From a virus, in the IMG/VR virus record IMGVR_UViG_3300038468_000027, positions 1-62,880 of that record: a DNA stretch of 62,880 nt; one strand, 5' to 3'. The notes under the pieces were generated by a model, which worked only from the letters and a program-made list of their open reading frames with translations, did not search any database and was not told the origin of the DNA. Position numbers and translations under genes: made by a program. The number at the start of each line of letters is the position of its first letter. Position 1 is the first letter of the stretch. This document shows, piece after piece, positions 8,776-40,003 of this stretch.

Positions 8776-8777
8776 GC

Positions 8778-9246: not shown

Positions 9247-9252
9247 GGACGC

Positions 9253-10388: not shown

Positions 10389-10417
10389 CCAATTACCATT
10401 AACGAAAGGAAGGCGGC

Positions 10418-15967: not shown

Positions 15968-16150
15968 ATGGACGACGACAAGCGCAAGCGGCGACTCTCC
16001 TACCCGGTCCGGCTCAATCACCCGCGGTTCCCGGGACTGGCGGAGAGGTTGGAGAAGGTGGTCCGGACGCACGGGAAGAAGAAGGGCGATGTGATTCTGG
16101 AGGGGACTGACATCCGCGTATCGCAACTGGAGAAGAAGGAACCGGTGTGA
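15968..16150 (+). CDS. Hypothetical basic protein
   Basis: ORF. Confidence 0.45.
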   Translation: MDDDKRKRRLSYPVRLNHPRFPGLAERLEKVVRTHGKKKGDVILEGTDIRVSQLEKKEPV

Positions 16151-24530: not shown

Positions 24531-25013
24531 ATGAGCGTTGGACTTGGAAAAACTGCTGAGGCGGTACTCGTTACCTGCCTCATGAGAAGCGAGCGTCTTC
24601 AGCCCGCTTCCGGCACGACCGGAACTTTCTACTACAACGGCGCGCCGATCACCACGGCGTCGGGGTACGGCCTTGACACAAAGGACTTTGACGATGTCGT
24701 CATTGCCCTGAACATCGGGACCGTTCTGGGTGCGACCGTCACACTGTCGAACTCGATCTATGAGTCCGACTCCGACGATCCGACGGAAGCGACGTTGCTT
24801 TCAGGCGCTGCCTTCGATGACGTCGGCGTGAGCACTGATGAGATCCTTCAGGTCGCGTCGATCAACTGCAGCGAGACCAAGCGGTATCTGTTCCTGGTCA
24901 CGCAGATTGCCAGGCCGACCACGACCACGCCGACCGTCGACATGGGCGCGGTTGCAATCCTGAGTCGCGCGGACAGTCAGCCGACCAGCCAGACGCTTGA
25001 CTTCGATGTGTAG
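24531..25013 (+). CDS. Putative head decoration/structural protein with a Thr-rich patch
   Basis: Positioned after the capsid gene; ARPTTTTPTVD. Confidence 0.45.
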   Translation: MSVGLGKTAEAVLVTCLMRSERLQPASGTTGTFYYNGAPITTASGYGLDTKDFDDVVIALNIGTVLGATVTLSNSIYESDSDDPTEATLLSGAAFDDVGVSTDEILQVASINCSETKRYLFLVTQIARPTTTTPTVDMGAVAILSRADSQPTSQTLDFDV

Positions 25014-25360: not shown

Positions 25361-26218
25361 ATGTCTTTGATGCTTCTCAGCAGCTACGAACGCCTGCGGC
25401 GCTACATCAGCGATCAGGACGGCACGGCAATGACCGACGGCCACGGTCTGGAGCGTGAGTTGACCAACTGGATCATGTCAACTTCTCGCCAGATCGAGCA
25501 GTATTGCGGGCGGGAGTTTCACATCGAGAGCCGCACTGAGTATTTCGACGTGGACGCCCAGCGGTATGAGTTCTGGCCGAAGGCGGCGCCGGTCGTGACA
25601 CTGACCTCAATCTATGAGGACTCCGATGGCGAGTGGGACGGTGATGAGTCTGAGATCACCGACAGCTTTATCGGGGTCAACGGCGAGTCCGTGGTGTTGC
25701 CTGAGCCGATAGGGTATCAGGCGCGAAAGGCCGTGCGGGTGATCTATACCGGCGGGCTGGCGTATCACGGCGTTCGATCTACGTTTGCTGTGGCGTCCGG
25801 CGCGGACTTCACCGCAGCACGGTACGTCAAGGGCGGGACCAGTCTGGCGAAGGGCATTGTGCGGACCGCTGCCGCCACGTCCCTGGTAGTGGAGAACCTG
25901 TACGGCATCTTTGAAGCCGGGGAGACGCTGACTGAGTACACGGACGAGGCGTGCACTGCGGCCAGCGGAATCACCGAGGCGATCGTTTCAATCACCTACC
26001 AGTCCCTTGCCGAAGCGCATCCCGACCTAGTGCGGGCATGTGAGATTCAGTGCCGCCAAAACTACAAGCACAAGAGCGATTTCGAGATCACCGGGTCGAA
26101 CAAAGACGGATCGACGAATCGACAAGGCGGGATGCACTCTTCGATCATGTTGCCGCAGGCATTTCTTACCGAAGCTATTATCCTCCTCGAACCATACCGG
26201 AGGTTCCAGTATGCCTAA
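25361..26218 (+). CDS. Head-tail connector (gp6-like N-terminus) with extended C-terminal domain
   Basis: LRRYISDQD...LERELTNWIMSTSRQIEQYCGREF resembles gp6-like connectors. Confidence 0.55.
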   Translation: MSLMLLSSYERLRRYISDQDGTAMTDGHGLERELTNWIMSTSRQIEQYCGREFHIESRTEYFDVDAQRYEFWPKAAPVVTLTSIYEDSDGEWDGDESEITDSFIGVNGESVVLPEPIGYQARKAVRVIYTGGLAYHGVRSTFAVASGADFTAARYVKGGTSLAKGIVRTAAATSLVVENLYGIFEAGETLTEYTDEACTAASGITEAIVSITYQSLAEAHPDLVRACEIQCRQNYKHKSDFEITGSNKDGSTNRQGGMHSSIMLPQAFLTEAIILLEPYRRFQYA

Positions 26219-26843
26219 CGTCGGCATCACTGGAAACTTCGACGCGGTGAAACGTAAGATCGCGTTGACAAAGCAGCAGATCATTAACGCAACGAAAGCC
26301 GGTATGCGTAATGGCATGCATGAGATCAACCAGACTCAGGTGCGCACGCAGATGCGCGGGCGTCCTGGTCTCAACATGCGGCATGGTGGAGGGGCTGGAC
26401 TTTCCGGGTCGTGGTTCGTGCGGGAAATACACGGCATCTCCGACTCCGTGTACCGGCTCGCCACACGGTCGAAGTATGCCGCGGTTCACCAGTACGGTGA
26501 CGGTGGAAAGGTCTTTGCCAAAAAGTCAAAGATGCTTGCAATTCCAATAAGCCCACAAGCGCAGGGCAAAAGCCCGCGGGACTTTCACGACCTGATAATG
26601 ATTTCCCGTCCTGGACATCCACCGCTTCTCGTGCGGCAATATCGCAAAGGGGGTGCGGCAAGAACGGCCGGAGCAGAGCGGCAAATCGTCCGCGAAGACA
26701 TCATGTTCGTGCTAAAGCGGTCAGTCAAGATTCCAAAGCGTCTGCATCTCTTGGAGCATTTCAGATCGCAGGGCCGACAGATTATCCTTCAGAACATCCT
26801 GCGTCAGATGAAAAAAGTCGCAGAGATCAAGGGGACGAAATGA
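26211..26843 (+). CDS. Head-tail adaptor / virion morphogenesis (HK97 gp10 / Mu G-like) protein
   Basis: KYAAVHQYGDGG...AIPISP..G.SPRDF pattern; position. Confidence 0.5.
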   Translation: MPNVGITGNFDAVKRKIALTKQQIINATKAGMRNGMHEINQTQVRTQMRGRPGLNMRHGGGAGLSGSWFVREIHGISDSVYRLATRSKYAAVHQYGDGGKVFAKKSKMLAIPISPQAQGKSPRDFHDLIMISRPGHPPLLVRQYRKGGAARTAGAERQIVREDIMFVLKRSVKIPKRLHLLEHFRSQGRQIILQNILRQMKKVAEIKGTK

Positions 26844-27502
26844 AGCGCATTATCTCATTCGCCCTGTGGGGACAGAACACGCTCTATACGCACGGTGCAG
26901 TCCGCAACGCCGAGCGGTACGCGGAGTTCTATCCAGGCTGGACGTGCAGGTTCTACCATGACGACACGGTTCCCTCTGACATCCTGGAGAAGATCGCGGC
27001 GACCGGTGCGGAGATGTGGGTCATGGGGCGATCTACCGACGTACTCGGGATGTACTGGCGCTTTCATCCGATGTTCGACGACCCGCAGGTCGAGCGGTTC
27101 ATCGTGAGGGATACCGACAGTTTCTTCACAAAGCGAGAAGCCATGGCGGTGCAGGAGTGGATAGACTCAGGACTCCCGTTTCACATCATGCGAGACAATC
27201 AGGTCCACAACGTGTCGATACTTGGCGGGACCTGGGGAGCGGTGCCGGGATGCGTGCCGAACTTCCAGCGCCGGTTGTCGATGTGGATGGCGACTGTTCG
27301 TCCGCAGCCGAAGAACGATCGCGGACTCTTCCACGGCACGGATCAGATTTTCCTCCACTGCCTTGTATGGCCGGAGATCAGAGACAAGCACATGGCCCAT
27401 GTACGGGAAGGCATGGAGCATCTCAAGTGCACGACGAAAGACCGGTGGTTCCCAGTTCCGGTCGAGACGGAAAACGGACATTACGTAGGGATGGTAGCAT
27501 GA
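26840..27502 (+). CDS. Putative glycosyltransferase, uncharacterised DxD family (RDTDS)
   Basis: ATGA overlap with the adaptor gene. About 50% identical by eye to the N-terminal half of the next protein (IISFALWG..Y..GA..N....PGW.CR.Y ... ERFIVRDTD ... ILGGTWGA.PGCVP). Confidence 0.55.
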   Translation: MKRIISFALWGQNTLYTHGAVRNAERYAEFYPGWTCRFYHDDTVPSDILEKIAATGAEMWVMGRSTDVLGMYWRFHPMFDDPQVERFIVRDTDSFFTKREAMAVQEWIDSGLPFHIMRDNQVHNVSILGGTWGAVPGCVPNFQRRLSMWMATVRPQPKNDRGLFHGTDQIFLHCLVWPEIRDKHMAHVREGMEHLKCTTKDRWFPVPVETENGHYVGMVA

Positions 27503-28989
27503 ACAAAATCATTTCTTTCGCCCTGTGGGGAGATCAGCCGCTTTACATTGAAGGGGCAATCAACAACATTACCGGAAGGGACAAGTTTTTCCCAGGATGG
27601 GTATGCCGATATTACATTGACGAAACGACTGTGCCGACAGAAGTTCAAAAAACGCTGAAAGAGTCGGCTGGCGTCGAGGTTGTCAATATGGGGCACGCCG
27701 AAGATGTTCTCGGAATGTTCTGGCGATTTTATCCTATGTGGGATATCGAAAACGTCGAGCGGTTTATTGTCAGGGATACGGATTGTCAATTTACAGAGAG
27801 AGAGCGGGCTGCGGTGCTTGAATGGGAAAACAGTGGAAAGCCGTTCCATATCATCAGAGACAACCAGGCCCACAACATACCGATACTCGGTGGAACATGG
27901 GGCGCGATTCCTGGATGCGTTCCAGGAATGGAGTCTGCCGCAAGGCTGTTTTTGTCAAGTGTTAAAGAAACAAAATCGCAGCACCCAACTCGGAAGTATC
28001 ATGGAGTGGATCAGATCTTTCTGTGTCAATACGCTTGGCCATTAATCAAAAACAATCACATCGCCCACATTCGGGCTAACGAGCCAGGGCTGATATTTTC
28101 TGGCGATGAAGTATGGCTTCCACATCTTGAGGATGGCGGACATTTCGTTGGGATGCCGTGCGCCAAGGTTGATGACAAGCTGGTGAGAATCGAGAGCCAT
28201 CTAATCAATCACAATCCAACTATTCCGACTGACAAGACGAAGAAAAAAACATACGACAAAATCTGCATCATGCTTCCGACGTACAAGCGGCCCGAGCGGC
28301 TGCGCAAGTTCATTTTGTCGGCGCTCAAACACGCGACGGACCCCCACTGCCTGCGGTTCTGTTTCTGCGTGAACAAGAAGGACACCGATACCATTGTCAT
28401 GTTGGAAGAAATGTATTGGCCGTCTCCGCTGTGCTGGGAAATCGTCTTTGAGTCCACGCGCCAGCCGAATCTTTCTCTTTACTTCAACATGATGTATGAC
28501 AAGACGCGATTCAATGATGACGGAACACTCGTCACGATGTTCGGCGATGACATGGTATTCGTCAGCAACGGATGGGACGAGAAGTTTCTCGCGGCTATGA
28601 ACAAGGCAGACGGCAACGCAATCGTCTACGGCGACGATGCCTTTATCGCACACGACAAGTTAACGGTACACTTCTGTACATCGCGCAAGGTGGTCTGCGC
28701 AACCGGCCTGCCGTTTATGTGCACCAAGTATCACGCGGAGATGATCGACGTGGTGTGGACCAATGTCGGGCAGACCACCGGGATACTCAAGTATCTACCG
28801 GATGTCATCATCAAACACGATCACGACAGCGGGAAAACGGAGGACAAGTGGGATGACACTTTTCGCCGACTGTCGCCGCTACGTAAGATGGCAAACAGTC
28901 AGGACCGTCAACGTCCGGCTATCGTGTGGTCAACGGTCGCCAGTGCCAACCTAATCAAAAACGGGATAGGCCAATGGAACGTCCTCTGA
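27499..28989 (+). CDS. Two-domain glycosyltransferase: paralog of 26840 fused to a GT-A/GT2-like domain
   Basis: N-terminal half is the paralog (RDTDC). C-terminal half has ICIMLPTYKRPERL ... FGDDMVF. ATGA overlap. Confidence 0.6.
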   Translation: MNKIISFALWGDQPLYIEGAINNITGRDKFFPGWVCRYYIDETTVPTEVQKTLKESAGVEVVNMGHAEDVLGMFWRFYPMWDIENVERFIVRDTDCQFTERERAAVLEWENSGKPFHIIRDNQAHNIPILGGTWGAIPGCVPGMESAARLFLSSVKETKSQHPTRKYHGVDQIFLCQYAWPLIKNNHIAHIRANEPGLIFSGDEVWLPHLEDGGHFVGMPCAKVDDKLVRIESHLINHNPTIPTDKTKKKTYDKICIMLPTYKRPERLRKFILSALKHATDPHCLRFCFCVNKKDTDTIVMLEEMYWPSPLCWEIVFESTRQPNLSLYFNMMYDKTRFNDDGTLVTMFGDDMVFVSNGWDEKFLAAMNKADGNAIVYGDDAFIAHDKLTVHFCTSRKVVCATGLPFMCTKYHAEMIDVVWTNVGQTTGILKYLPDVIIKHDHDSGKTEDKWDDTFRRLSPLRKMANSQDRQRPAIVWSTVASANLIKNGIGQWNVL

Positions 28990-29561
28990 GCTGCGAAAAT
29001 CCGCTTCTGTCAATTTTGATTTGCTCGCTCAATGCGCGCAAGGTCATGCTTGACAGCATTGTCTCCAAGCTCTCCGGTCAGTGCAAAGGCAAAGTCGAAA
29101 TCGTGGTTGACTCTGACAATGGAGAGAAGGTTGTCGGCAAGAAGCGCAACGACCTCATCGCCGCGGCGCGCGGGGAGTACGTGGTGTTCGTGGACGACGA
29201 CGACGACGTGTCAGATGACTACGTGCAGAAGATCCTTGCCGCCCTGCGCACGCGTCCCGACTGCGTTGGAATGGAGGGGATTATCACAGTCGGCGACGCA
29301 TCGTCACTGTTCAAGCACTCGATTGAGTATTGCGGATGGTATACCGGGATCGACGGATACTACCGCACGCCCAACCACCTGAATCCCATCAGGCGATCCA
29401 TTGCGGTTGCCGTGGGGTTCCCGTCAAGCGTGCAGTTCGGTGAGGATCAAAGGTACAGCGAGGCCATCGTCAAGCATTTGAAGACCGAGAAGTACATTGA
29501 GGGTCCCATTTACTTCTACAAGTGCACGAAGAAACTCACGGCGGTACGGGTGCCAGCATGA
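28974..29561 (+). CDS. GT2-family glycosyltransferase
   Basis: LSILICSLNARK...VGKKRNDLIAAARGEYVVFVDDDDDVSDDY. Confidence 0.75.
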   Translation: MERPLSCENPLLSILICSLNARKVMLDSIVSKLSGQCKGKVEIVVDSDNGEKVVGKKRNDLIAAARGEYVVFVDDDDDVSDDYVQKILAALRTRPDCVGMEGIITVGDASSLFKHSIEYCGWYTGIDGYYRTPNHLNPIRRSIAVAVGFPSSVQFGEDQRYSEAIVKHLKTEKYIEGPIYFYKCTKKLTAVRVPA

Positions 29562-30634
29562 GACTGTTCAACGTCGATCAACACATCTCAGTCGTTGCCG
29601 ATCTGAAAAACGTCTGGCGCGACTTCGGCCACACGATAGAGGACTGGTGTCTGTCTGGTCACTCGTTTGTCTTTGGCCGCAAGGACGACCGGGACAAGAT
29701 ACCGGAGATGGCCGACGATGCTTGGTGCGCCGTGAGCAACGAGGACAGATGGGGCGAACTGGCGGAGAAATACCGGCCGGTCTGGGATCAGTACGACGGC
29801 TATGTCGTGACCTATCCCCCAGTATTCGCCCGCCTGTTCGAGACCTACGGAAAACCGATCATTGTGCACATTCCGATCCGGTTCGATTACGGGGTCCACG
29901 ACAAGCCTGAGCTTTTGGACAAGCTGATCACATGCCTTCGACAGAACAATGTTTATTTGTGCGCCAATAACAAATTCGACAAGGCATACGCCGAGGCATT
30001 TATCGGCAAGGAAGTGAGGCACATCCCAAGCCTCTGCCGGTATACCGGGATGCGGTACAATCCGACCGACCCGCGCATACTGGTTCAGGAGCATGTTCAC
30101 ATGGCGGAGCTTGACCGCAATATGTTTGTCAACAAGCACGTCGCCTTGAAGGCTGGATACCAATGGAGCGAGATGGCGAGATTCCGGGCCATCGCACATT
30201 TTCCGTATCAGATTTCTACCATGTCAATTCTCGAGCAGTACACGGCCCAGATACCGCTATTGTTCCCGACGAAAGACTTGATGCTGCGGCTGTGGAAAGA
30301 GAAGCGAGTCCTTGAGCACATGACTCACTATCCGCTGTGGCGGACGGCGCCAGGATCACAGCGCGCATATGCCCCAGGATGGGAACCGTCCACCGACCCC
30401 AACGCATACGACAAGGAGGAGGCCGTGTCCTACTGGTTGGACAAGGCCGACTATTACGACGCGGAGTTGATGCCTGATATCATGTACTTCGACAGCATGC
30501 AGGAGCTTCACGAGATGGCGGCAGAGGACATGCGACCCGCGCACTATGCCATGCTGGCAACGAACATCACGCGCCGGCAGTTGGTGTATCGAGAATGGGA
30601 ACAGGTATTTAAGGAGATCGCATGCGCTTCCTAA
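29558..30634 (+). CDS. Uncharacterised GT-B-like protein, tandem paralog 1
   Basis: About 45-50% identity by eye to 30622..31692 (M.F/L..DQHISV.AD.K..... PYQ.STMSI.EQYTA.IP.L.P). ATGA overlap. Confidence 0.45.
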   Translation: MRLFNVDQHISVVADLKNVWRDFGHTIEDWCLSGHSFVFGRKDDRDKIPEMADDAWCAVSNEDRWGELAEKYRPVWDQYDGYVVTYPPVFARLFETYGKPIIVHIPIRFDYGVHDKPELLDKLITCLRQNNVYLCANNKFDKAYAEAFIGKEVRHIPSLCRYTGMRYNPTDPRILVQEHVHMAELDRNMFVNKHVALKAGYQWSEMARFRAIAHFPYQISTMSILEQYTAQIPLLFPTKDLMLRLWKEKRVLEHMTHYPLWRTAPGSQRAYAPGWEPSTDPNAYDKEEAVSYWLDKADYYDAELMPDIMYFDSMQELHEMAAEDMRPAHYAMLATNITRRQLVYREWEQVFKEIACAS

Positions 30635-31692
30635 GCATCGATCAACACATCTCGGTAATCGCCGACATCAAGGCGATACTTCGCGCCATGGGCCACACGG
30701 TGGATGACCTGTGCCTTTCAGCGCACGCTCACATCATGGGCCGTGAGCAGGACCGCGCGCGCATTCCGGAACTGGCCGGCGACCTGTGGCAGAGAGTCAG
30801 CGACGAGAACCGATGGAATGAGGTTGCCGCGGCACATGCTGATGAGTGGAAGCAGTACGACGGATTCATCACCACCCATCCGCCGCTATTCGCGCGATTG
30901 TTCATTGACTTTGGGAAGCCTGTTGTATCGGTTATGTCCATTCGTGTCGATAACGGAGTTCACGACAAGCCGGACCTGCTCAATGCCTTACTCGATGATC
31001 TGCGCAAGCCCAATGTAATCCTATGCGCCAACAACAAGGTGGATGCCATGTACGGGCTGGCTTTGGTGCGAAAGCCGGTGGTGCATATCCCGAGCCTGTG
31101 CGCGTACACGGCAGCGCGGTACGAACCGCGTGATCACCGAGTATTGTCGTATGAGCACATCCCGGCGCCTGAGCTTGATCGATCGGTATTCGTGGAGAAG
31201 TCGGTCCTGGGCAAGGACTACAAGTGGCAGGACGTGGCGAACTTTCGGGCCGTGCTGCACCTCCCCTATCAGGTGAGTACCATGTCGATCTTCGAACAGT
31301 ACACGGCAGGCATCCCGATATTGGTCCCCGACATAGATCTGATGATGCGCCTGTGGTCAGAGGTCCGGGTGTTAAATCACTTGTCGAATGCGTCACTGTG
31401 GGGAACCGCGCCACAATGCGCCGTGGCCTATGACGAGGAAATCGCGCACCACGACCTTAACGACTATCGCAACGTTGACTCCGTAAGGTGGTGGGCAAAG
31501 TACGCAGACTACTATGATACCGAATGGATGCCGGATGTTATGCAGTTTGAGTCCTTTGGCGATCTTGAAATACTTGCCTCTGGAGAGCTTCGATACATCA
31601 GCGAGAACATGCGCGTCACCAACATCGAGCGACGGCAGCGGGTCTATGGTCTTTGGGAAGGCATCATGCGCAAGGCAAAGGACATGCTGTGA
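30622..31692 (+). CDS. Uncharacterised GT-B-like protein, tandem paralog 2
   Basis: See the previous entry. Confidence 0.45.
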   Translation: MRFLSIDQHISVIADIKAILRAMGHTVDDLCLSAHAHIMGREQDRARIPELAGDLWQRVSDENRWNEVAAAHADEWKQYDGFITTHPPLFARLFIDFGKPVVSVMSIRVDNGVHDKPDLLNALLDDLRKPNVILCANNKVDAMYGLALVRKPVVHIPSLCAYTAARYEPRDHRVLSYEHIPAPELDRSVFVEKSVLGKDYKWQDVANFRAVLHLPYQVSTMSIFEQYTAGIPILVPDIDLMMRLWSEVRVLNHLSNASLWGTAPQCAVAYDEEIAHHDLNDYRNVDSVRWWAKYADYYDTEWMPDVMQFESFGDLEILASGELRYISENMRVTNIERRQRVYGLWEGIMRKAKDML

Positions 31693-32549
31693 TCGGGGTT
31701 CACGTAGACGGCGACATCATCAACCGGGCGAAGCGAAACGGGCCGAACATTCGGGCTGTTCACTTGCTGCGCGAGTTGGACAAGATGGGTGTCGAGTATA
31801 CCAGAGATCGCACCATACAGGCAAAGAACGCCGCAATCCATCCCGGCGCGTTCAATGTTCTGTGCGACCAACTTCCCGCATGTACTCCGGTAGGACCGAA
31901 CATCGTTCATGAGGCGCGGGGACACACGGCGATCGGGTCGAAGTTTCACAATATCATCGTGCAGGGACAATGGGTCGCCGACTACTGGCGCTGGTATGAT
32001 CCTGAGATATGCAAAAACCTGACGTTTTACGTCTGGCCGAGCGGTGTTGACACAGAGATATACAAACCAGACGATACGCCAAAGGACATTGATTGCCTTT
32101 GGTACTGCAAGTACGTGAACCAGGACGCTCGGGTTGCGGTGAGTCAGGAACTTGCCAAGAAAAACCAGTCGTTTCGCGTTGTCGAGTACGGGCAATACGA
32201 GCAGGCTGAGATGGTTGCCGTTGCTGCGCGGTCGCGGTACTGCGTGTATAGTTCGTGCTGCGAGAAGTCTCCACATGCACTACTGGAGATCATGTCAATG
32301 GGCCTTCCGGCATTTGTGATTGACTCAAAGAAGTGGATTGGCGATGACAAGTTCGACCAGTGCACGTCCGCCCCGGACTGGTCTGATGAATGCGGCATCA
32401 AGTCCAGCAACGAACAGATCGACGACAGGTTCAGCACGTTCCTTGCCCGCTTGGATCAGTTCAAGCCGCGCGAGTACGTGTGCCGGGAAAGAACGATACG
32501 GCAGTTCGCGCAGCGGTTTCTGGATATCGTGGAGGCGTGCCATGTCTAA
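31689..32549 (+). CDS. GT-B (GT1/GT4-like) glycosyltransferase candidate
   Basis: SSCCEKSPHALLEIMSMGLPAFV resembles the E..(x7)E / EAMA.G.P region. GTG start overlaps the preceding stop. Confidence 0.5.
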   Translation: MIGVHVDGDIINRAKRNGPNIRAVHLLRELDKMGVEYTRDRTIQAKNAAIHPGAFNVLCDQLPACTPVGPNIVHEARGHTAIGSKFHNIIVQGQWVADYWRWYDPEICKNLTFYVWPSGVDTEIYKPDDTPKDIDCLWYCKYVNQDARVAVSQELAKKNQSFRVVEYGQYEQAEMVAVAARSRYCVYSSCCEKSPHALLEIMSMGLPAFVIDSKKWIGDDKFDQCTSAPDWSDECGIKSSNEQIDDRFSTFLARLDQFKPREYVCRERTIRQFAQRFLDIVEACHV

Positions 32550-33477
32550 GATGCGCGTCTTGGGATTCCCCTACTACCCGAACAGCGAATCAGGATCCGC
32601 GCGCATGCGGTTCTGGGCGCGGTTAGCAGCAATTGCCGAACTGATTGCGCTCAAGATCTTCGAGATCAGCGACGATCCCGGAGACTTCGACGTGGTCTAT
32701 TTGCAAAAAAAGTGCGACGCCGTGTCAATAGAATTGTGTGAACGGGCAGCGAAGTGCGGCGTACCGATAGTCTATGACTTCGACGACGCATTCGGCACGT
32801 TTGTCTCCCAAGAACTCGGAGTGCAGATGCTTGCGCGCGCCGACGCCGTAGTGACAGATACTCGATTCAAGGTTGACGCATACGGAAAGTATTCGCGTAG
32901 TCGCATGAGGGTCATTCCTGACGGCCTCGACTACTATGATAATTGGTTTGACATTACACCAAAGAACGAAGTTCGATCGGCCTGCACGTTTGGCTGGGAC
33001 ATCAACGTCGAGGCAGCGACCCCGTACATGCTCGCGGCAAGGCAGAATCTTGACGGGCCAATGTCGTATATCAGCAACAAAACGCAACCGGCCTATGAAG
33101 CAGCCGGCGTGAAGTTCTATAAGTGGCAGCAGGCTGACTTTTTGGCGAATCTGACAGCGCATGATTGTGCGATAATCTGTCACGGCGACAGCATCCATGA
33201 CCGCATGAGATGCACGAATCGCTTTCTTACCGCTGCGTTCTCCGGACTGTTGCCGATACCGCGGGATTCCATCGAATATGCGGAAATCGCGCTGCACCTC
33301 GGGGTTCCATTTTTATGCGCCCGCACGCCCGCGCATGTACCGAAGATCATTTCCGAGTACGGGTCACGGCGGGCGGAAATCATCACGGCGTTGCGTCCGA
33401 AGATCTGGCAGGAGTTCAATCCGCGCGTGGGCGGTGAAAAGCTATACGATGTCATGCGAGGAGTGTGTCGAACATGA
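32542..33477 (+). CDS. Hypothetical protein, possibly GT-B-like
   Basis: GGAGG upstream of ATG 32542; Rossmann-like alternation, with no firm motif. Confidence 0.4.
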   Translation: MSKMRVLGFPYYPNSESGSARMRFWARLAAIAELIALKIFEISDDPGDFDVVYLQKKCDAVSIELCERAAKCGVPIVYDFDDAFGTFVSQELGVQMLARADAVVTDTRFKVDAYGKYSRSRMRVIPDGLDYYDNWFDITPKNEVRSACTFGWDINVEAATPYMLAARQNLDGPMSYISNKTQPAYEAAGVKFYKWQQADFLANLTAHDCAIICHGDSIHDRMRCTNRFLTAAFSGLLPIPRDSIEYAEIALHLGVPFLCARTPAHVPKIISEYGSRRAEIITALRPKIWQEFNPRVGGEKLYDVMRGVCRT

Positions 33478-34580
33478 TACCGGTTTTCTCCAACACCCTC
33501 GGTCAGGAAGAACTCGTCGCAGTCGGCCGAGTAATGGCATCGCGTTGGCTTGGTGTCGGCCAGGAATGCGCGGCATTCGAGAGGGAACTCGCGGCCTATT
33601 GGAAAACGGACACGGTTTTGCTGCACAACTCATGCACATCGGCGACGTACAACGCGGTGAAGGCCCTTGGAGTCCGTGAGTTCAACGAGATCATCATCAC
33701 CACAGTCGGATTCGTGGCGACCCTCTCCGCCGTCCTGGACCTGGGCGCGGAGCCGGTATTCGCCGACGTGGATCCGCGCACCCTCAACATCCTGCCGTCC
33801 GAGATCAAGCGTCTACGGACCCACAAGACTCGGGCCGTGATCGTTTTGCACTACGGCGGGCACCCGGCGCCGATAGATGACATACTGGATGCCGCCCAGG
33901 GTATCCCGGTGATCGAGGACGCCGCCAACGCCCCTGCCTCTACGCACGCGGGGCGGGCCTGTGGTACGATCGGGGCCGCAGGGGTATGGAGCTTCGACGC
34001 GATGAAGATACTGTCCTGTGGCGACGGAGGGGCCTTGAGGATAGCCCCTGAGTACGTGGACCGGGCTCGGCGCCTGCGGTATCTGGGGCTGGACGAGAGC
34101 GGCACGACCGGCATGGCAAAGGCGGGATCCGGGGCGGATCGCTGGTGGGAGTACAATCTGACCGAGCCGGCCGGCCGGCATGTGTCCAATGACCTGTGCG
34201 CCGCCATTGGGCGCGAACAACTCCGGAAGCTGCCGGCATTCGTTGTCAGGCGCCGGGCGATCTGGGACACCTACCAGCGCGAACTCACGGGTATGGGCGA
34301 CCTACAGACGCCCCCGGAGCCAATGGACGGTTGTACGTCCAGCTACTACCTGTATTGGGTCCAGACCTCACGCCGGGACGCTTTGGCCGCACATCTCAAA
34401 GGTAGGGGCATTTACACCACCTACCGGTATCATCCGCTGCACCGGGCGTGGCGATATCACTGCGAGTTGACCAACTCGGAATCGGCATCGGCGCGAACGC
34501 TCAACATCCCGCTTCACCAGAACCTAACTGACGACGATGTGGGCATGATCGTTGAGGCTATATGGGAGTTCTACCGATGA
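33474..34580 (+). CDS. DegT/DnrJ/EryC1/StrS-family PLP-dependent sugar aminotransferase
   Basis: MIPVFSNTLGQEEL..., VIEDAANA, and SFDAMKIL (the PLP lysine context). Confidence 0.85.
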   Translation: MIPVFSNTLGQEELVAVGRVMASRWLGVGQECAAFERELAAYWKTDTVLLHNSCTSATYNAVKALGVREFNEIIITTVGFVATLSAVLDLGAEPVFADVDPRTLNILPSEIKRLRTHKTRAVIVLHYGGHPAPIDDILDAAQGIPVIEDAANAPASTHAGRACGTIGAAGVWSFDAMKILSCGDGGALRIAPEYVDRARRLRYLGLDESGTTGMAKAGSGADRWWEYNLTEPAGRHVSNDLCAAIGREQLRKLPAFVVRRRAIWDTYQRELTGMGDLQTPPEPMDGCTSSYYLYWVQTSRRDALAAHLKGRGIYTTYRYHPLHRAWRYHCELTNSESASARTLNIPLHQNLTDDDVGMIVEAIWEFYR

Positions 34581-34876
34581 GCATGCGCGACCACAATCAC
34601 ATGCTGACTATCTGCGAGGTCTTGCGCTGTATCAATGATCGGGTGCAGAGCAATGACCCAAACTCGGTTATGATCCGAGACATGCTGGCCCTGGCAGAAC
34701 GCATGGGCAAAAGCATGATGGAAAAGCTGCACAGCTACAGCGAACTGGCAGACCCTGTGTGGTGGGAGAAGAACCCGGAGTACGGGAAGCAACTCACGCG
34801 CACGGTTAGAGAGTATCGTATAGGTGATGCCGACGCCGCAGCGCGGGCGCTGGCACTACTGCGAGGTGAAAGATGA
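34577..34876 (+). CDS. Hypothetical protein (99 aa)
   Basis: ATGA overlap on both sides. Confidence 0.55.
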   Translation: MSMRDHNHMLTICEVLRCINDRVQSNDPNSVMIRDMLALAERMGKSMMEKLHSYSELADPVWWEKNPEYGKQLTRTVREYRIGDADAAARALALLRGER

Positions 34877-35427
34877 AGGCATACGTGGACTGCGGCGCGT
34901 TCCGTGGGCGCACCATAGATCGGTTCCTGAGCAAGCGCGAAGACCGCGACGAGTTCCGCGTGTGGGCATTCGAGTGTAACCCGTTGCTGGAGTCCGTAGA
35001 CTACGGGCCGCGTGTGACCAAGATTAGGAAAGCGGTATGGACTACCGACGAGGCGCTTCATCTCTACGTGTGTCCGTCAAACGTCGATAGTGAAGGAGCG
35101 TCATTGCACCGGGAGAAAACCACCGGCGAACTCGACCTGGCAAACCCGGTTCTGGTTGGCGGCATTGATTTCAGCAAGTGGGTGTCGTCAACGTTCAACT
35201 CGTTCGACATGCTCATCGTCAAAATGAACATCGAGGGCGCGGAATACGACGTGCTTCCGAAGATGGTCTGGGATAAATCGATCGAATTGATATCGGAGCT
35301 GCATGTGCAGTGGCACTGGCAAAAGTTGGGCATGGTTCAAGCGGCACACGAGCAGGTGCGCAGCATGGTACACGCCGCGTGTCCTGGAATCGTGTATGAC
35401 AACAACGATTCATGGGAGTCCCTGTGA
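34873..35427 (+). CDS. FkbM-family methyltransferase
   Basis: YVDCGAFRG...VWAFECNP ... IVKMNIEGAEYDVLPKM. Confidence 0.7.
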   Translation: MKAYVDCGAFRGRTIDRFLSKREDRDEFRVWAFECNPLLESVDYGPRVTKIRKAVWTTDEALHLYVCPSNVDSEGASLHREKTTGELDLANPVLVGGIDFSKWVSSTFNSFDMLIVKMNIEGAEYDVLPKMVWDKSIELISELHVQWHWQKLGMVQAAHEQVRSMVHAACPGIVYDNNDSWESL

Positions 35428-36065
35428 TTGACTTTCTTGCGGTCACTATTTGTGTCGGCGACTTTCTCTACCAGGAGTATGCACACCTGGCTCTGAAAGC
35501 ACAGAGCAAGTATTGGGGACACTTTAGGATACCATTCGAAGTATGCACGGAGCACTTCGAGGAGATGCGCGGCACGTCTCCGTCATGGCAGCGGGTGGTC
35601 ATGCACGAGCATTACGACGCTAGGTTCATTCTCGTACACGGTCTCGACATGCTCCCCTGCAATCTCAAGTATGACATCCGAGACTTTCTCATGATAGATC
35701 AAGTCAACATGGCGACGGACTGCAGTGTGATCGGATGCGACCCGGAAGCGCATACCTTTCCGCATTTCAGGTACAACGCGGACATGATCGGGTATCCGCG
35801 GACGATGGCGCCGTTCTTCCGCAGCGTCTGGGATAAGTACCGGGACGATCCGAAGTACAAGGACACCTTCGAGCAATACTGCCTTAACAAAGAACTTCAC
35901 GAGCAGCGGGTATACGTCAACGAAATACCAAACTGTTTCAACCGGTTCTTCTATCCTGGCATCGACTACTCTCATACGGCCTTTTGCCATTACACGAATT
36001 ACATGGGCAGTCACCAGAAGACGGAATACATCGTCAATCATCACCCCAAGGAGATGATCGAATGA
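35424..36065 (+). CDS. Hypothetical protein (possibly nucleotide-sugar transferase-like)
   Basis: GGGAG upstream of GTG 35424; no firm motif. Confidence 0.45.
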   Translation: MIDFLAVTICVGDFLYQEYAHLALKAQSKYWGHFRIPFEVCTEHFEEMRGTSPSWQRVVMHEHYDARFILVHGLDMLPCNLKYDIRDFLMIDQVNMATDCSVIGCDPEAHTFPHFRYNADMIGYPRTMAPFFRSVWDKYRDDPKYKDTFEQYCLNKELHEQRVYVNEIPNCFNRFFYPGIDYSHTAFCHYTNYMGSHQKTEYIVNHHPKEMIE

Positions 36066-36964
36066 AGACCGCCCGGTTCAACTCAGTTGCCAAGTTGGCC
36101 ATGCGGCCGGAGTTCCGAGAGTATGTGCGTACCGGCATTTGCACACCGGTCAATGTCGAGATATCTCCAGTCGGCCACTGCAATTCAACCTGCTGGTATT
36201 GCCTATACAAGACGAAACGGTATTCGGGAATAATGGACATAACCATGGCGCTGGCGCTAATTGACGAGTTGCAGAGCATGGGGGTTCCGGCGCTTACCTG
36301 GTCAGGCTGCGGAGAGCCGACGCTACATCCTCAGTTCTCGACAATGGTCAAGCGTGCGGCGGCATTGAACCAGGGAATGTTTACTAATGCATTATTGTAT
36401 CCCGAATACGATCCGTCTCATTTTGACTGGATACGGGTAACAGTGGTGCCGGGCCGCGCGCTGAATCTGGACAATCTACGAAAACTTCGGGAGGCCAAGA
36501 CTCTCGGGCTGTGCTGCAATGTCGGTCCGGATGATGATGATGAGATATGCAAAACGCTCGACGCTGCAAAGAAAATCGGGGCCGATTATGTGCACGTACG
36601 CCCGGTTCTTTTGACCGAAGGGCAGTCGTGGGAAGTGCGCCGGCCAACCATCGACGATCCGCTGTTGGTGTATGACGAGGGGAAATTCTCAGATCCTTAC
36701 TGTGAGCGCAACTATCGGGAATGCCGCGGCTTTCACTTCTCGCCCTTCGTCTGGTTTGACGGAGAGGTCACGATCTGCGCGTATCTCAAGGGCAATCCGG
36801 CATACAGTCTTGGGAACCTTCGAAACACGTCGTTTAACAAAATCATGATGACCGCCATGGACTTCGCGCCGGTGATAAGAGATTGCCAGGTCAACTGCAA
36901 AAACCACGAGGCCAACGAACTCACTAACGCCGCGATGAAGATTCGGGATCCGAACTTTGTATGA
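36062..36964 (+). CDS. Radical SAM enzyme
   Basis: CNSTCWYC (CxxxCxxC) and SGCGEPTL SAM-binding motif. ATGA overlap. Confidence 0.8.
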   Translation: MKTARFNSVAKLAMRPEFREYVRTGICTPVNVEISPVGHCNSTCWYCLYKTKRYSGIMDITMALALIDELQSMGVPALTWSGCGEPTLHPQFSTMVKRAAALNQGMFTNALLYPEYDPSHFDWIRVTVVPGRALNLDNLRKLREAKTLGLCCNVGPDDDDEICKTLDAAKKIGADYVHVRPVLLTEGQSWEVRRPTIDDPLLVYDEGKFSDPYCERNYRECRGFHFSPFVWFDGEVTICAYLKGNPAYSLGNLRNTSFNKIMMTAMDFAPVIRDCQVNCKNHEANELTNAAMKIRDPNFV

Positions 36965-37695
36965 AAACCTGGACACCCAATATCCGCGTGCTTGAACTGT
37001 GCATCACCTATCGGTGCAATGTGAAGTGCGACAACTGTTCGAACCTGTGCACCCAGGCTCCGATGGATGATAGTGGAGACCTGACGTATGATGAGATCGA
37101 GTCGATGATACGCGAGTCCGCTGACTGCGGGTATCAATGGGGACAAATCTCGCTGCACGGCGGGGAACCTCTTTTGCATCCTGAGGTATTGGCGATCGGG
37201 CACCTACTCGTGGACTACCGGAGGGTGCACAGTCCCGGCTTGGCCTTGCAGGCCTTGACCAATTGGAGCACGGAGAAGATACGGGTTGTCGGCGACTCGC
37301 TGCGGTCGATGGGGATTAATCTCGGAATCAGCGAGAAGCATGTGCGCAACCAAATGGCGAACGGATCACCGATACCATACGTTCCGGTCAATGAGTCGCC
37401 GGAGGACCTTGGTCTATCACACGACGGTGGATGCTTTCAGACGGAGAACTGCGGGATCTGCCGCAACTATCTGGGATTCTGGCCGTGTTCTCCGATGGCC
37501 GCTGCCGCTCGGGTATTCGGGTATACTACTCCGATTCTGCGCGTGAATGATATCGCGGTTGATGGAATGCGCGATCTGTTGCCGATGCATTGTAAGCACT
37601 GCGGATTCTCGATGCCTGACCGACCGCGGGTCATAGACCAGATTTCGACAAAGACGTGGACGGAAGGATTCAAACAATACCAGGAGGTCGCGTGA
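36961..37695 (+). CDS. Radical SAM enzyme with Cys-rich (SPASM/twitch-like?) C-terminus
   Basis: CNVKCDNC, HGGEPLL, and C-terminal GGCFQTENCGICRNY...CS...CKHCG. Confidence 0.75.
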   Translation: MKTWTPNIRVLELCITYRCNVKCDNCSNLCTQAPMDDSGDLTYDEIESMIRESADCGYQWGQISLHGGEPLLHPEVLAIGHLLVDYRRVHSPGLALQALTNWSTEKIRVVGDSLRSMGINLGISEKHVRNQMANGSPIPYVPVNESPEDLGLSHDGGCFQTENCGICRNYLGFWPCSPMAAAARVFGYTTPILRVNDIAVDGMRDLLPMHCKHCGFSMPDRPRVIDQISTKTWTEGFKQYQEVA

Positions 37696-38867
37696 GTACG
37701 CTTGCGCTCAATATCATCGTCGGTGCTGGAGAATCGGCAGAGTTGTATCATTGCCTGTCCACCTTCCGCGCGCGTGAGACGTTTGATGAAATCGTGATAT
37801 GCCAGACCGCAACGGACGATGCGGTGAAAGCCGTGTGTGATGACTTCGGCGCAAAGGTCGTGACGTTCGAGTGGAAAACGCCGGAGCATCCTTTCGGAGA
37901 CTTCGCGGGCGCGCGCAACACAGCACTCCACGCTACCACCAGCGATTACGTGATGTGGCTTGACGCTGACGACATGTGCCTTGAGCAGTATCAGGAAAAG
38001 TTGATCACCGTTCGTGACATAGTGAGGGACGACAAAAACAGCGAGGTCGATGCGTACTTCATGCGGTACGACATTATCTCCGAGATCGACGGCACTCCGA
38101 CAACCGTTTTCTGGAGAGATCGGATATTCAAGCGCGGTCCGCGCTTCCGATGGGAACGGGCGGTGCATGAGTTCTCGTGCCGGGACTGGACCAACATCGT
38201 GCATGGCAAGATCAACAACATGGCGGTCACGCACGAGCCGCAGAAGCCCAATTACGTCTCTGCAATGCGGAATGTCGCCATCCTTGAACATGAGTACAAA
38301 GTCAAGAAGGATATGTCGCACGAGACGCGATACTTCCTTGGGCGTGATTTGCTGTGCTGCGGTCGAGAGGCGGAGGGGCTTGCGTTGTTCGAGGAATTGC
38401 TCTGCGATCAAGAGGCGTCACCGGAGAACATGTATCTGATGTGCATCACCGCTGCGTTTTATATGGCCTATGGCGCTCACATCACGCGGCCTGGCATTGG
38501 GGACGTAGTCGAGACCGCGCTGACAGATGCGGAACGGTGGGCGAGGTTGTCTCTTGGCATGGACAATCGATATGCCGAGCCCTATGTGATTCTGGGTGAC
38601 GTATACATGAAGCGTGGTCTTGTGGATGCGGCGGAACGCATGTACTCCATTGCGCTGAAAAAGAAACTCAACGCCGGGACGTTGCAGAACGTGCCGTTTT
38701 ATGAGGAGGTTCCAGCGGAGAGGTTAAGTGATATTTACATCATGCGAAACCAACTCGAAAAGGCACTATGGTACAACTCGCGAAGCATGGCGCACAATCC
38801 TGGATGCGAATACTGCAAATCCATGCGAAAAAAAATGCTCGAAGTGCTTGTGTCCAAGTGTGACTGA
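37692..38867 (+). CDS. GT2 glycosyltransferase with C-terminal TPR-like domain (SunS-like architecture)
   Basis: FDEIVICQTATDDAV ... FAGARNTAL..TSDYVMWLDADD ... RWERAVHE ... then helical repeats. Collinear with my recollection of SunS-type peptide glycosyltransferases. Confidence 0.65.
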   Translation: MSTLALNIIVGAGESAELYHCLSTFRARETFDEIVICQTATDDAVKAVCDDFGAKVVTFEWKTPEHPFGDFAGARNTALHATTSDYVMWLDADDMCLEQYQEKLITVRDIVRDDKNSEVDAYFMRYDIISEIDGTPTTVFWRDRIFKRGPRFRWERAVHEFSCRDWTNIVHGKINNMAVTHEPQKPNYVSAMRNVAILEHEYKVKKDMSHETRYFLGRDLLCCGREAEGLALFEELLCDQEASPENMYLMCITAAFYMAYGAHITRPGIGDVVETALTDAERWARLSLGMDNRYAEPYVILGDVYMKRGLVDAAERMYSIALKKKLNAGTLQNVPFYEEVPAERLSDIYIMRNQLEKALWYNSRSMAHNPGCEYCKSMRKKMLEVLVSKCD

Positions 38868-38884: not shown

Positions 38885-39064
38885 ATGGAATCCATCTGCG
38901 AGGAATGTCTCCAACACAGCGGAATCGAGGGGCGCATGAAACGGGCCGAAGCTGACGTGCAGGCGATATGGCGGTCAATCGACTCCATGAAGGCGTGGGT
39001 GATCGCCGGCATGGGGTCGATGGTGGGAACCTTTCTGGTGTTGGCACTCAACAAGATTTTCTGA
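38885..39064 (+). CDS. 59-aa protein with C-terminal TM (holin/antiholin candidate; not in the ORF track)
   Basis: GGGAG upstream of ATG 38885; WVIAGMGSMVGTFLVLAL. Confidence 0.45.
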   Translation: MESICEECLQHSGIEGRMKRAEADVQAIWRSIDSMKAWVIAGMGSMVGTFLVLALNKIF

Positions 39065-39074
39065 GGAGGCAAGT

Positions 39075-39260
39075 ATGGCAAATAGCATGAGGAAAAACGC
39101 GGTGAAGGGCACAGTCGCCGGGATTGCGGCAACCATCGCAACGTGCGCCGTGGCTTTCATTTCGAAGCTCGACTCCGCTCAGAAGGCCGCGTTGGTGCCG
39201 GTGATCGCGGCTGGAATCGTGGCGCTGTACGACGCCATCAAGCATAGGGGCAAGAAGTGA
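39075..39260 (+). CDS. Holin candidate (2 TM, basic C-terminus)
   Basis: GAGGAGG upstream; VAGIAATIATCAVAFI and LVPVIAAGIVALY; ends HRGKK. Confidence 0.55.
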   Translation: MANSMRKNAVKGTVAGIAATIATCAVAFISKLDSAQKAALVPVIAAGIVALYDAIKHRGKK

Positions 39261-39691
39261 CACCGCGAGAACTCTTTGTCACCTTCATGCGAAACAGTGC
39301 CGGGCTGCCGTACATCTTCGGCGGGAACGGTCCGGAGACGTACGACTGTTCCGGTGTGGTCTGCGCGGCTCTGCGGGCGGCCGGGGTACACATCGGGGAC
39401 CACAGCGCTCAGGACATCTACGCCCTCTGGAAGGACCGCACCGTGCCGGAGTATTCGCGCGAGGGGCAACTGTTTTTTTACCGGGACGCACCCGCCGGTC
39501 CCGTGACTCACGTCATGGCCGGCATCCGGTATTGGGGCAAGGGCCGGGGGTGGCTGGTGGGCGCGCGCGGGGGCGGGCACACGACGTTGACCGTAGACCT
39601 GGCCTGGGCGGCCAAGGCGTGCGTGGATCTGGTGCGGAGCGATTACTGGCAGGACGCCCGGGTGGCGATCTGCGATCCGTGGGACGATTAA
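39257..39691 (+). CDS. NlpC/P60-family cell-wall hydrolase (endolysin)
   Basis: PYIFGGNGPETYDCSGVV catalytic Cys context, with a downstream His. Confidence 0.8.
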   Translation: MTPRELFVTFMRNSAGLPYIFGGNGPETYDCSGVVCAALRAAGVHIGDHSAQDIYALWKDRTVPEYSREGQLFFYRDAPAGPVTHVMAGIRYWGKGRGWLVGARGGGHTTLTVDLAWAAKACVDLVRSDYWQDARVAICDPWDD

Positions 39692-39715: not shown

Positions 39716-40003
39716 ATGAAAGTCCAGTTCGTCACGAAACCCGATGCTGCCGGATTCGTTCGCGCCCATGTGGAGCTATCGAAGGACGAGGCGATTCCGC
39801 TGAAATATAAAGAGAAGGACTACACCGAGGAGCGTGCTTTGAAGGACGCAGAGGCATACGTCGTGGCAAGAGCAAAAGCGCAGGCTGACGAGGCGGCAAA
39901 GGTCGCGCTGGAATCGTCGTTGTCCTACAAGTTGGACAAGTTGACTGAGGAGTTCGGGGCTGCTGCTGTCAAGGCTGCGGTCGGCGTGAAGGAGATTGCG
40001 TAA
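39716..40003 (+). CDS. Hypothetical helical protein
   Basis: GGAGG upstream; Ala/Lys/Glu-rich. Confidence 0.55.
   Translation: MKVQFVTKPDAAGFVRAHVELSKDEAIPLKYKEKDYTEERALKDAEAYVVARAKAQADEAAKVALESSLSYKLDKLTEEFGAAAVKAAVGVKEIA

Follow-up and report, generated by a model that had tools for sequence, protein, structure and literature searches.

The window analysed here is the whole of the 62,880-nucleotide IMG/VR virus record IMGVR_UViG_3300038468_000027. It holds a complete phage genome, with a unit length of 59,443 bp, and a wrap-around: positions 1-3437 are repeated as 59444-62880 (3,437 bp, zero mismatches) and the open reading frames (ORFs) of 256-3180 reappear at 59699-62623, which reflects either a circular assembly or a long terminal repeat. 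Between the neck gene and two holin-like genes lie fourteen + strand genes, designated g1 to g14 (26840-38867, Table 1), which form a gapless sugar-modification island and take up 20.2% of the genome. This island, which an original prediction made from the DNA letters took to be a candidate cytoplasmic system for the glycosylation of virion proteins, is the subject of the present analysis. Its gene boundaries are the same in an independent gene call on the same contig (Logan SRR12953107), in agreement with the predicted coordinates. The genes are translationally coupled: all junctions from the neck gene to g14 overlap, 11 of them by ATGA or GTGA, exactly the 11 that had been predicted, and the other three by 16, 13 and 8 nucleotides. 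Inside the island, promoter-like sites (11, compared to 9.9 expected from shuffled sequence) and terminator-like sites (15 compared to 14.6) are found at chance frequency. The G+C content of the island (0.552) matches that of the rest of the genome (0.560), which argues for an old, resident island and not a recent moron.

The island is set among genes for virion structure. On the upstream side, the large terminase is accompanied by a portal-MuF fusion, a protease/scaffold protein, an HK97-type capsid protein (23039-24457; Phage_capsid, E 3.2e-18), a 160-amino-acid protein (24531-25013) with no GenBank phage homologue and no Pfam domain, and weak adaptor or neck matches. Downstream come two small membrane proteins, an NlpC/P60 hydrolase, a 1045-amino-acid protein, a tail tube protein (43172-44125; Phage_tube_2) and the tape measure. 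No sheath gene was found, and the phage is long-tailed (siphovirus-like). The proposal of a soluble pathway, rich in glycosyltransferases, inside a late structural operon is supported. As for the gene directly upstream, the label 'head-tail adaptor' had as its sole basis the weak match listed in Table 1, and we refer to it as a neck or connector gene.

Table 1. Genes of the sugar-modification island and flanking features, in window coordinates
Feature	Coordinates	Strand	Description
Neck/connector gene	26211-26843	+	PHROG Neck1/tail completion, weak (E 2.4e-4); stop overlaps g1 start (ATGA)
g1	26840-27502	+	Single-domain GT-A-like glycosyltransferase
g2	27499-28989	+	Two tandem GT-A domains (g1-like N-terminal domain and C-terminal domain)
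g3	28974-29561	+	GT2-family glycosyltransferase
g4	29558-30634	+	GT-B-fold glycosyltransferase, undescribed family
g5	30622-31692	+	g4 paralogue
g6	31689-32549	+	Probable GT-B, GT1/GT4-like C-terminal domain; accessory
g7	32542-33477	+	Probable GT4-like GT-B glycosyltransferase; accessory
g8	33474-34580	+	DegT/DnrJ/EryC1 pyridoxal phosphate (PLP)-dependent nucleoside diphosphate (NDP)-keto-sugar aminotransferase
g9	34577-34876	+	99-amino-acid protein, no database match
g10	34873-35427	+	FkbM-family methyltransferase, probable sugar O-methyltransferase
g11	35424-36065	+	213-amino-acid conserved protein, invariant LDxxPCN motif
g12	36062-36964	+	Radical S-adenosylmethionine (SAM) enzyme with SPASM domain; accessory
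g13	36961-37695	+	Compact radical SAM enzyme, Cys-rich C-terminal region
g14	37692-38867	+	GT2-TPR glycosyltransferase, candidate initiating protein glycosyltransferase
Probable lysis cassette	38885-39691	+	Two small membrane proteins and NlpC/P60 hydrolase (NLPC_P60 3.8e-10, hydrophobic segments)
1045-amino-acid protein	40003-43140	+	C-terminal ~157 amino acids form a tail-terminator domain; downstream island boundary

The enzyme inventory of the original prediction proved essentially right when Pfam, PHROG, NCBIfam and structural models were consulted. Where about nine glycosyltransferase-like proteins had been expected, eight are supported, with nine catalytic domains (g1, two in g2, g3, g4, g5, g6, g7 and g14), those of g6 and g7 weakly. 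Seven island proteins fell into no family, and paralogy, homologue alignments and structure prediction were applied to them. In g3, matches to Pfam Glycos_transf_2 (5.6e-9) and to the glycosyltransferase PHROG 14775 (9.9e-33) were found, and its DDDD motif is invariant in the orthologue alignment. The g1 protein has no Pfam, PHROG, NCBIfam or PDB sequence match; it is 48% identical to residues 1-219 of g2 and carries an RDTDS motif, with D91, D93, R118 and D119 nearly invariant among 36 homologues. The AlphaFold2 model of g2 (predicted local distance difference test, pLDDT, 87) consists of two tandem GT-A domains, and what it resembles most in the PDB is a set of enzymes with dual GT-A domains, namely K4CP, LARGE1, CHSY3/CHPF and COLGALT1 (E down to 8e-11); TarP is also among its solved structural neighbours. 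When viral models were compared, the g1-like domain of g2 matched GT-A proteins of giant viruses and phages. The best viral neighbours of g1/g2 belong to a mimivirus, Heterosigma akashiwo virus, Aureococcus anophagefferens virus and unnamed entries, and uncultured-phage glycosyltransferases are found among the neighbours of g2 as well. Its C-terminal domain matches another glycosyltransferase, PHROG 14945 (8.6e-12). In relatives L011-L014 (L numbers designate the contigs that were compared) this domain alone (residues 255-496) is present, as a gene of about 248 amino acids.

The g4 model has a GT-B fold (pLDDT 95.5, predicted template-modelling score 0.92), and 23 of its 23 PDB matches at E <= 1e-3 are GT-B glycosyltransferases (SpnG, BshA, OleD, Gtf3; E 1.6e-5, template-modelling (TM) score ~0.45). 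None of 118 g4 homologues has a Pfam domain over the aligned region, no named CAZy or Pfam family was found, and a tblastn search of 50,697 GenBank phages gave no match. Its paralogue g5 (50% identity over 353 amino acids) is missing from all relatives examined, so that the g4/g5 duplication is seen only in this phage. For g6, present also in L002, L011, L026 and L071, three orthologues have weak Glyco_trans_1_4 matches (E 0.0007-0.04), and no PDB sequence match was obtained. For g7, the window protein matches Glyco_trans_4_4 (E 0.0035) and its L002 orthologue Glyco_trans_1_4 (E 0.0016). On these family matches, g6 and g7 are probable GT1/GT4-like GT-B glycosyltransferases. A g4-family gene was also encountered in a bacterial metagenome-assembled genome (contig of GCA_964455095.1, L017, 3459-10612), less than 7 kb from a GT2-TPR gene and near an 892-amino-acid GT2/NTP_transf_5 gene; the pairing of g4 with a GT2-TPR enzyme may therefore exist in cells too. 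A 42.6-kb NCBI contig with a g4 homologue was suspected to be the Manatee Spring podophage, and was rejected as bacterial.

The last gene, g14, is the sole island gene present in every relative examined. Its product matches Pfam Glycos_transf_2 (1.3e-9), the tetratricopeptide repeat (TPR) families TPR_MalT and TPR_14, and a SunS-family NCBIfam model (2e-8). Searched alone against the PDB, it matches GmaR (8.7e-12), SunS (2.8e-8) and ThuS; with a profile built from seven orthologues and run against 177,635 PDB sequences, the top two matches are GmaR (1.9e-16) and SunS (4.2e-11). The GmaR match spans the whole catalytic domain, the SunS match extends into the helical domain, and consensus-TPR proteins of the PDB match profile positions 275-323. 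A WLDxDD motif is invariant in the seven orthologues. GmaR is the flagellin O-linked N-acetylglucosamine transferase of Listeria, in which a TPR domain, presumed to bind the protein substrate, comes after an N-terminal glycosyltransferase domain (PMC9638930). SunS and ThuS are peptide glycosyltransferases, SunS being an S-glycosyltransferase. What g14 shares with the three is an N-terminal GT-A (GT2) domain with a DxD motif, then a helical region, made of TPR repeats in g14; it differs from them in being at most ~25-30% identical, in having no antirepressor domain and in being embedded in a multi-enzyme extension pathway, whereas GmaR and SunS each add a single sugar. We regard this kinship as the best positive evidence that the glycan is started on a protein, and at 25-30% sequence identity as a lead, not a proof. 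The homologues of g14 form 62 clusters at 30-47% identity, all of them on contigs of 64 kb or less, which indicates a large and, as far as seen, purely viral family.

The predicted DegT aminotransferase, FkbM methyltransferase and two radical SAM enzymes were all confirmed by Pfam, the methyltransferase marginally. The g8 protein matches DegT/DnrJ/EryC1 over residues 9-363 of its 368 (1.2e-75, 255 bits compared to a gathering threshold of 19.8); its nearest NCBIfam models are PseC (3e-57), dTDP-4-amino-4,6-dideoxygalactose transaminase (1.5e-55) and ArnB (1.8e-50), all below the equivalog cut-offs. The g10 match to Methyltransf_21 (3.7e-5) reaches 24.4 bits for a cut-off of 22.7, and is accompanied by an NCBIfam fkbM_fam match (1.8e-6); the L071 island also has an FkbM gene. 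Both Radical_SAM (4e-9, 37.3 bits) and SPASM (2e-4, 22.0 bits for a cut-off of 21.5) are matched by g12, in which the CxxxCxxC motif reads CNSTCWYC. The g13 protein matches Radical_SAM exactly at the cut-off (9.8e-7, 29.5 bits) and Fer4_12; C19, C23, C26 and six more cysteines are invariant, and its profile finds generic radical SAM cores only, YydG being the best (3e-4). No specific radical SAM subfamily was found for g12 or g13 in NCBIfam, PDB and profile searches. As for the two unassigned genes, g9 gave no match in Pfam, PHROG, NCBIfam or orthologue searches, and g11 none in Pfam, PHROG, NCBIfam or the PDB, either as a single sequence or as a profile (hhalign against the g1 family gave 10% probability).

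All three of g7, g8 and g12 are present in each of the four phages with g7 or g8, and a g12-like gene is also found in L072, where the locus is incomplete upstream. In butirosin biosynthesis, the radical SAM dehydrogenase BtrN acts before a DegT-type aminotransferase. Considering this pairing, the co-occurrence of g12 with g8 and a weak PDB match of g12 to BtrN (0.003), one may speculate that g12 makes the keto-sugar used by g8.

The enzyme content also bears on the possibility that the glycan is built on a soluble acceptor foreign to the virion, such as a host protein (for takeover or anti-defence), a non-structural phage protein, a peptide akin to glycocins or to ribosomally synthesized and post-translationally modified peptides, or a free or nucleotide-linked oligosaccharide. 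SunS and ThuS act on peptides, peptide-modifying radical SAM enzymes such as YydG, PqqE and WgkB are, weakly, among the solved or curated proteins closest to g12 and g13, and the bacterial contig with a g4 homologue near a GT2-TPR gene has no phage context. Nine glycosyltransferase domains and an aminotransferase are nevertheless far beyond the needs of a glycocin, no conserved small ORF resembling a precursor peptide was seen beside g14, and g9 is missing from many relatives. Given also that the fixed position of the island in the structural module (see below) favours a structural acceptor, we consider a non-virion acceptor unlikely.

Another target to be envisaged is the phage DNA, which the island might hypermodify with sugars in the manner of T4 glucosylation or of the multi-glycosyltransferase glycans on 5-hydroxymethylcytosine. 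Phage glycosyltransferases are classically DNA-modifying (review PMC12619734), and in cultured jumbo phages of Streptomyces and Arthrobacter, remote homologues of the C-terminal domain of g2 lie in DNA-metabolism modules, beside a nucleotidyltransferase. Yet a search of the larger early ORFs gave no thymidylate-synthase-like or other base hydroxymethylase, the island belongs to the structural operon and not to the replication module, g14 has a TPR domain of the protein-recognition type, and DegT aminotransferases act on NDP-sugars. Moreover, the phage already has a separate DNA-modification gene of the Mom family (642-1286, copy at 60085-60729; Pfam PF25680, E 3.3e-25), which is the family of the adenine-modifying enzyme of phage Mu. 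The phage thus probably modifies its own DNA by a Mom-type route, apart from the sugar island, and DNA as the target of the island appears highly improbable.

We then considered the functions that are absent. None of the 14 island proteins has a transmembrane segment in a hydropathy scan, and hydrophobic segments number at most two in any ORF of the whole window, which extends the predicted lack of multi-spanning membrane proteins beyond the island. Pfam and NCBIfam searches gave no match for a pyrophosphorylase, a 4,6-dehydratase, WecA/WbaP, Wzx or Wzy. The absence of an NDP-sugar pyrophosphorylase and of a 4,6-dehydratase therefore holds as predicted, as does that of lipid-carrier machinery belonging to the island itself, and the initiating phosphoglycosyltransferase, flippase and polymerase of an undecaprenyl phosphate-linked O-antigen or capsule pathway were not detected in the window. 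A dependence on host nucleotide sugars is likewise supported, since the only supply encountered, in two relatives, is a GDP-L-fucose synthase (NCBIfam Fcl, 1.2e-145). Its gene lies beside the portal gene in L005 (1440-2372, between the terminase and portal genes) and L009 (5463-6395), and the two copies are 73% identical. The phage family therefore supplements host sugar-nucleotide pathways after the dehydratase step.

A search for the same island in related phages, as the original prediction had suggested, found it at the same structural position in 21 metagenomic contigs. These relatives were retrieved through protein homologues of g2 and through alignment-based scans of IMG/VR with the capsid protein and g14. 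Megablast gave no GenBank phage match for the island, no close relative was present among GenBank phages, and single-protein scans of IMG/VR with the capsid protein or with g4 returned no relatives. The phage contigs reached through g2 homologues are about 54 kb long and organised in the same way. With the capsid alignment, a retrieval that is blind to island content, all seven relatives found have the neck gene followed immediately by g1, g2 and g3. In the 21 contigs the order is, wherever they cover the region, neck, island, g14, tail terminator and tail tube, and the neck-gene orthologue is directly 5' of the island.

Between these fixed flanks, content varies widely. The islands span 4.9 to 12 kb and contain 6 to 15 genes. 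The smallest (L012, 4.9 kb) consists of g1, the g2 C-terminal domain, g3, g4, g13 and g14; the largest, with 14 to 15 genes, are those of the window phage, L002 and L071. The genes g1, g2, g3 and g4 are common to most relatives, g13 is found in about half of them, and g9 and g11 occur together in six phages (orthologues of g9 are in L002, L005, L011, L026 and L071). A Glyco_trans_1_2 gene present in many relatives is lacking in the window phage, and the middle of other islands holds Caps_synth/DXD glycosyltransferase-methyltransferase fusions, two to three Methyltransf_24 genes, other radical SAM genes and an RXYLT1-like domain. Variable content between fixed flanks is what would be expected for an exposed glycan under diversifying selection.

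We conclude that a protein-directed, membrane-free glycosylation pathway is well supported. With moderate confidence, we read the island as a cytoplasmic assembly line, expressed late, that builds a complex glycan on phage protein, most likely virion protein. A virion protein is the most economical acceptor, because the island has its translation coupled to that of neck and tail genes, keeps the same position in every relative examined, and has a variable middle that resembles the loci of exposed surface glycans.

Such an assembly line might operate as follows. The TPR half of g14 would recognise a folded acceptor, to which the first sugar would be transferred on Ser or Thr (or Cys), in the way of GmaR on flagellin and SunS on a peptide. 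The chain would be extended by g1, g2 (with its two active sites) and g3, all GT-A enzymes, and by g4 of the GT-B type; g6 and g7 would add more sugars, and the duplicated g5 another linkage. The aminotransferase g8 would convert a keto-sugar, provided by a host 4,6-dehydratase or possibly by g12, into an NDP-amino-sugar, so that g7 (as transferase), g8 and g12 would constitute an amino-sugar module. The glycan would be O-methylated by g10, g13 would modify either a sugar or the acceptor, and host metabolism would supply the nucleotide sugars. The product would be an aminated, methylated oligo- or polysaccharide built directly on protein, for which the capsid protein, the 160-amino-acid product of 24531-25013, the tail tube and the terminator protein are candidate acceptors.

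Several observations weigh against this reading. Virion proteins are a plausible acceptor, as the original prediction had it, and are inferred as such from operon position and the kinship of g14. The specific acceptor site that had been put forward, the PTTTTPT patch of the 24531-25013 product, did not withstand comparison. This protein is the most Ser/Thr-rich of the structural proteins (24%), but its Thr run is peculiar to this phage, relatives having QGTPIT, PSTTVPT or QGSPIT in its place, although one Thr of the loop is invariant. In mycobacteriophages, the acceptor is presumably a Ser/Thr-rich C-terminal tail of the capsid or tail-tube subunit. Such a tail is lacking here on both proteins: the capsid C-terminus (...ADAQTTEASW) is conserved and not extended, and that of the tube is not Ser/Thr-rich. 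A scan of all structural proteins for Ser/Thr-rich segments and C-terminal tails gave nothing convincing. Further, g14 scores 33.5 bits for an equivalog cut-off of 350 in the SunS model (NCBIfam TIGR04195), which makes it a distant relative and not an orthologue. The jumbo-phage homologues of g2 in DNA-metabolism modules imply that the fold family alone does not fix the target. Relatives of g14 are labelled 'LOS beta-1,4-glucosyltransferase' in PHROG and GenBank, and 'cell wall biosynthesis' by the Joint Genome Institute; GT2 enzymes with related catalytic domains act on lipo-oligosaccharide (LOS) or teichoic acid.

The last of these points lead to the alternative that the island remodels a host envelope glycopolymer at the cytoplasmic face, with the lipid carrier, flippase and polymerase of the host. 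The targets would be lipopolysaccharide or O-antigen intermediates, wall teichoic acid, capsule, or the glycans of S-layer, pilin or flagellin, and the purpose could be to block superinfection or to keep progeny off debris. Conversion of the envelope had been argued against on the grounds of the missing membrane functions. This stands in so far as the island has no lipid-carrier machinery of its own. The lack of transmembrane segments, on the other hand, is compatible with envelope polymers as targets, because lipid-linked intermediates are common substrates of soluble or peripheral glycosyltransferases: TarP, the prophage wall-teichoic-acid glycosyltransferase found near g2 in structure, is soluble and membrane-free and acts on a lipid-linked polymer. 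The labels given to g14 relatives point in the same direction, as does the proximity of g8 to surface-glycan enzymes of the PseC, WecE and ArnB type. All this has to be set against the coupling of the island to late neck and tail genes, not to early or lysogeny genes, and against its strictly conserved place in the structural module of 21 relatives, which would be hard to account for if the host were the target. Besides, g14 has as its best relatives enzymes that glycosylate proteins or peptides and carry a TPR domain for recognition, and 20% of a 59-kb lytic genome spent on a cell about to lyse would be a poor investment. Seroconversion of a lysogen in particular is unlikely, as no integrase was seen among the subset of ORFs scanned and no prophage relatives among 185,579 GTDB species genomes. 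We therefore hold remodelling of the envelope to be improbable, and retain virion protein glycosylation as the preferred reading.

The kind of system proposed is known, from mycobacteriophage cassettes and from giant-virus capsid glycosylation. What is new here is a much larger, radical-SAM-containing and highly variable version, with partly undescribed glycosyltransferase families, in an uncultured phage lineage. The closest parallel in position is mycobacteriophage Corndog, in which an O-methyltransferase and three glycosyltransferases (gp35-38) lie between the genes for portal and protease (PMC4351075). According to work citing Freeman et al. 2023, the capsid and tail-tube subunits of Che8, Corndog and Myrna are glycosylated, at the C terminus. 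Phage-encoded soluble glycosyltransferases and an O-methyltransferase are thus common to Corndog gp35-38, Che8 gp107-110, Myrna and the present phage, and those of Corndog are inside the structural operon, as here. The differences are that the mycobacteriophage cassettes have 2 to 4 genes compared to 14 (6 to 15 across relatives), that the Corndog genes are placed between portal and protease and not between neck and terminator, and that the aminotransferase, the two radical SAM enzymes and the dual-domain glycosyltransferase are found here only. No relatives of g2, g4 or g14 were detectable in Mycobacterium phages when these three were searched by tblastn against the 50,697 GenBank phages, and there is no sign of an actinobacterial host.

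That a 14-gene island in such a place would be unusual, as first proposed, needs qualifying in view of two precedents. One is the four-gene Corndog cassette, and the other an unrelated 42.6-kb freshwater podophage (GenBank MW202524.1, L016), in which about 9 kb of annotated glycosyltransferase and methyltransferase genes (1656-11978) come right after the capsid gene. The first of these podophage genes, the only one compared, encodes a protein of 761 amino acids that shares 25% identity with g14 at its N-terminus. Sugar islands next to the capsid gene may be a recurring feature of aquatic phages.

Giant viruses (PBCV-1 with A064R and A111/114R, and the Megavirinae clusters) make unusual methylated or aminated glycans on their own capsid proteins in the cytoplasm, independently of the endoplasmic reticulum (ER), using multidomain GT-A enzymes. 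The likeness extends to structure, given that the best viral structural neighbours of g1/g2 are giant-virus proteins. Those viruses are however eukaryotic, with genomes of 300-1200 kb in which the genes are scattered or in separate clusters, compared to one contiguous operon in a 59-kb siphovirus-like phage, and the candidate initiating enzyme here resembles GmaR and SunS. Capsid or fibril glycosylation in chlorovirus PBCV-1 and Megavirinae is the theme of PMC7826918, PMC5408694 and PMC9614988.

Two further comparisons concern g2 and the lysogenic modifiers. With E. coli K4CP, LARGE1 and CHSY/CHPF, g2 has in common the two tandem GT-A domains (these being its top structural matches, E 8e-11 to 1e-9), but the overall TM-score is low (~0.3) owing to a different domain orientation, and the two domains are separate genes in several relatives (g1 and a short g2). 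LARGE1 builds a repeating disaccharide on a protein-linked glycan. Prophage modifiers such as TarP and the Gtr systems of O-antigen glucosylation are also phage-borne GT-A enzymes. They comprise 1 to 3 genes in temperate phages and are expressed from the prophage, and Gtr includes membrane proteins; here a 14-gene late operon is found in a phage for which neither prophage relatives nor, among the ORFs scanned, an integrase turned up.

By analogy with these systems, the whole could be viewed as the phage counterpart of a bacterial O-antigen locus, that is, a hypervariable 'virion glycan serotype' locus. In it, g1-g4 at one end and g14 at the other would prime a virion protein, and interchangeable accessory modules would set the outer structure; g2 would polymerise a repeat like LARGE1 or K4CP, giving a true polysaccharide coat, and g12 would stand in for the 4,6-dehydratase, converting a sugar by oxidation into the keto-sugar for g8. 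That all these parts should hold together is a tentative idea, and rather doubtful.

So far, glycosylation of phage virions has been shown for no more than a few mycobacteriophages, whose cassettes are small, and papers citing Freeman et al. 2023 describe the role of these glycans in terms of antibody evasion. If the favoured reading is true, complex particle glycans are ancient and conserved in a whole uncultured environmental family (with 62 or more clusters of g14), take up 20% of the genome, and vary in composition between relatives as bacterial surface antigens do. As no antibodies are met in such environments, their role would then be ecological, for instance in adhesion, in protection from proteases or grazers, or in escape from host sensors or decoys. 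Two glycosyltransferase families without a Pfam model, those of g1 and g4, are also defined by the island, as is a glycosylation core that contains radical SAM enzymes; for protein glyco-engineering, the island offers a compact set of soluble tools free of membrane components.

The genes bordering the island on its downstream side differ between relatives. In most of them no lysis cassette is found at this place and g14 overlaps the tail-terminator gene directly; in L029, an NlpC/P60 gene is likewise 3' of g14. The lysis cassette thus looks like a lineage-specific insertion into the structural operon. In the 1045-amino-acid protein that follows, a TIG domain covers residues 800-882 (3.5e-13) and Phage_tail_terminator_7 residues 890-987 (6.4e-6). 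Relatives have stand-alone terminators of 158-171 amino acids that match residues 889-1044, so that about 890 extra residues, IPT/TIG among them, precede the terminator domain in this phage; in L005 and L032 the extensions are shorter (356 and 271 amino acids). A terminator and a displayed fibre or adhesin may be combined in the extended protein, which is also a candidate glycan acceptor.

No tRNAs were found in the phage genome. The one hint as to the host, an unreliable one, is a 56.7-kb relative that was binned in a Chitinivibrionales metagenome-assembled genome. Just 5' of the portal gene, L004 (1-2527) encodes a Lipase_3 protein and a GDSL-lipase/Laminin_G_3 protein, which may be virion-associated esterases. 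In the window, a DUF488-N3a protein (5.2e-9) is encoded at 16147-16524, just 5' of the small terminase region. The early region contains a third radical SAM gene (6663-7403; Pfam 2.4e-8; PHROG 13321, of unknown function), with an HNH endonuclease gene (7400-7945) directly 3' of it.

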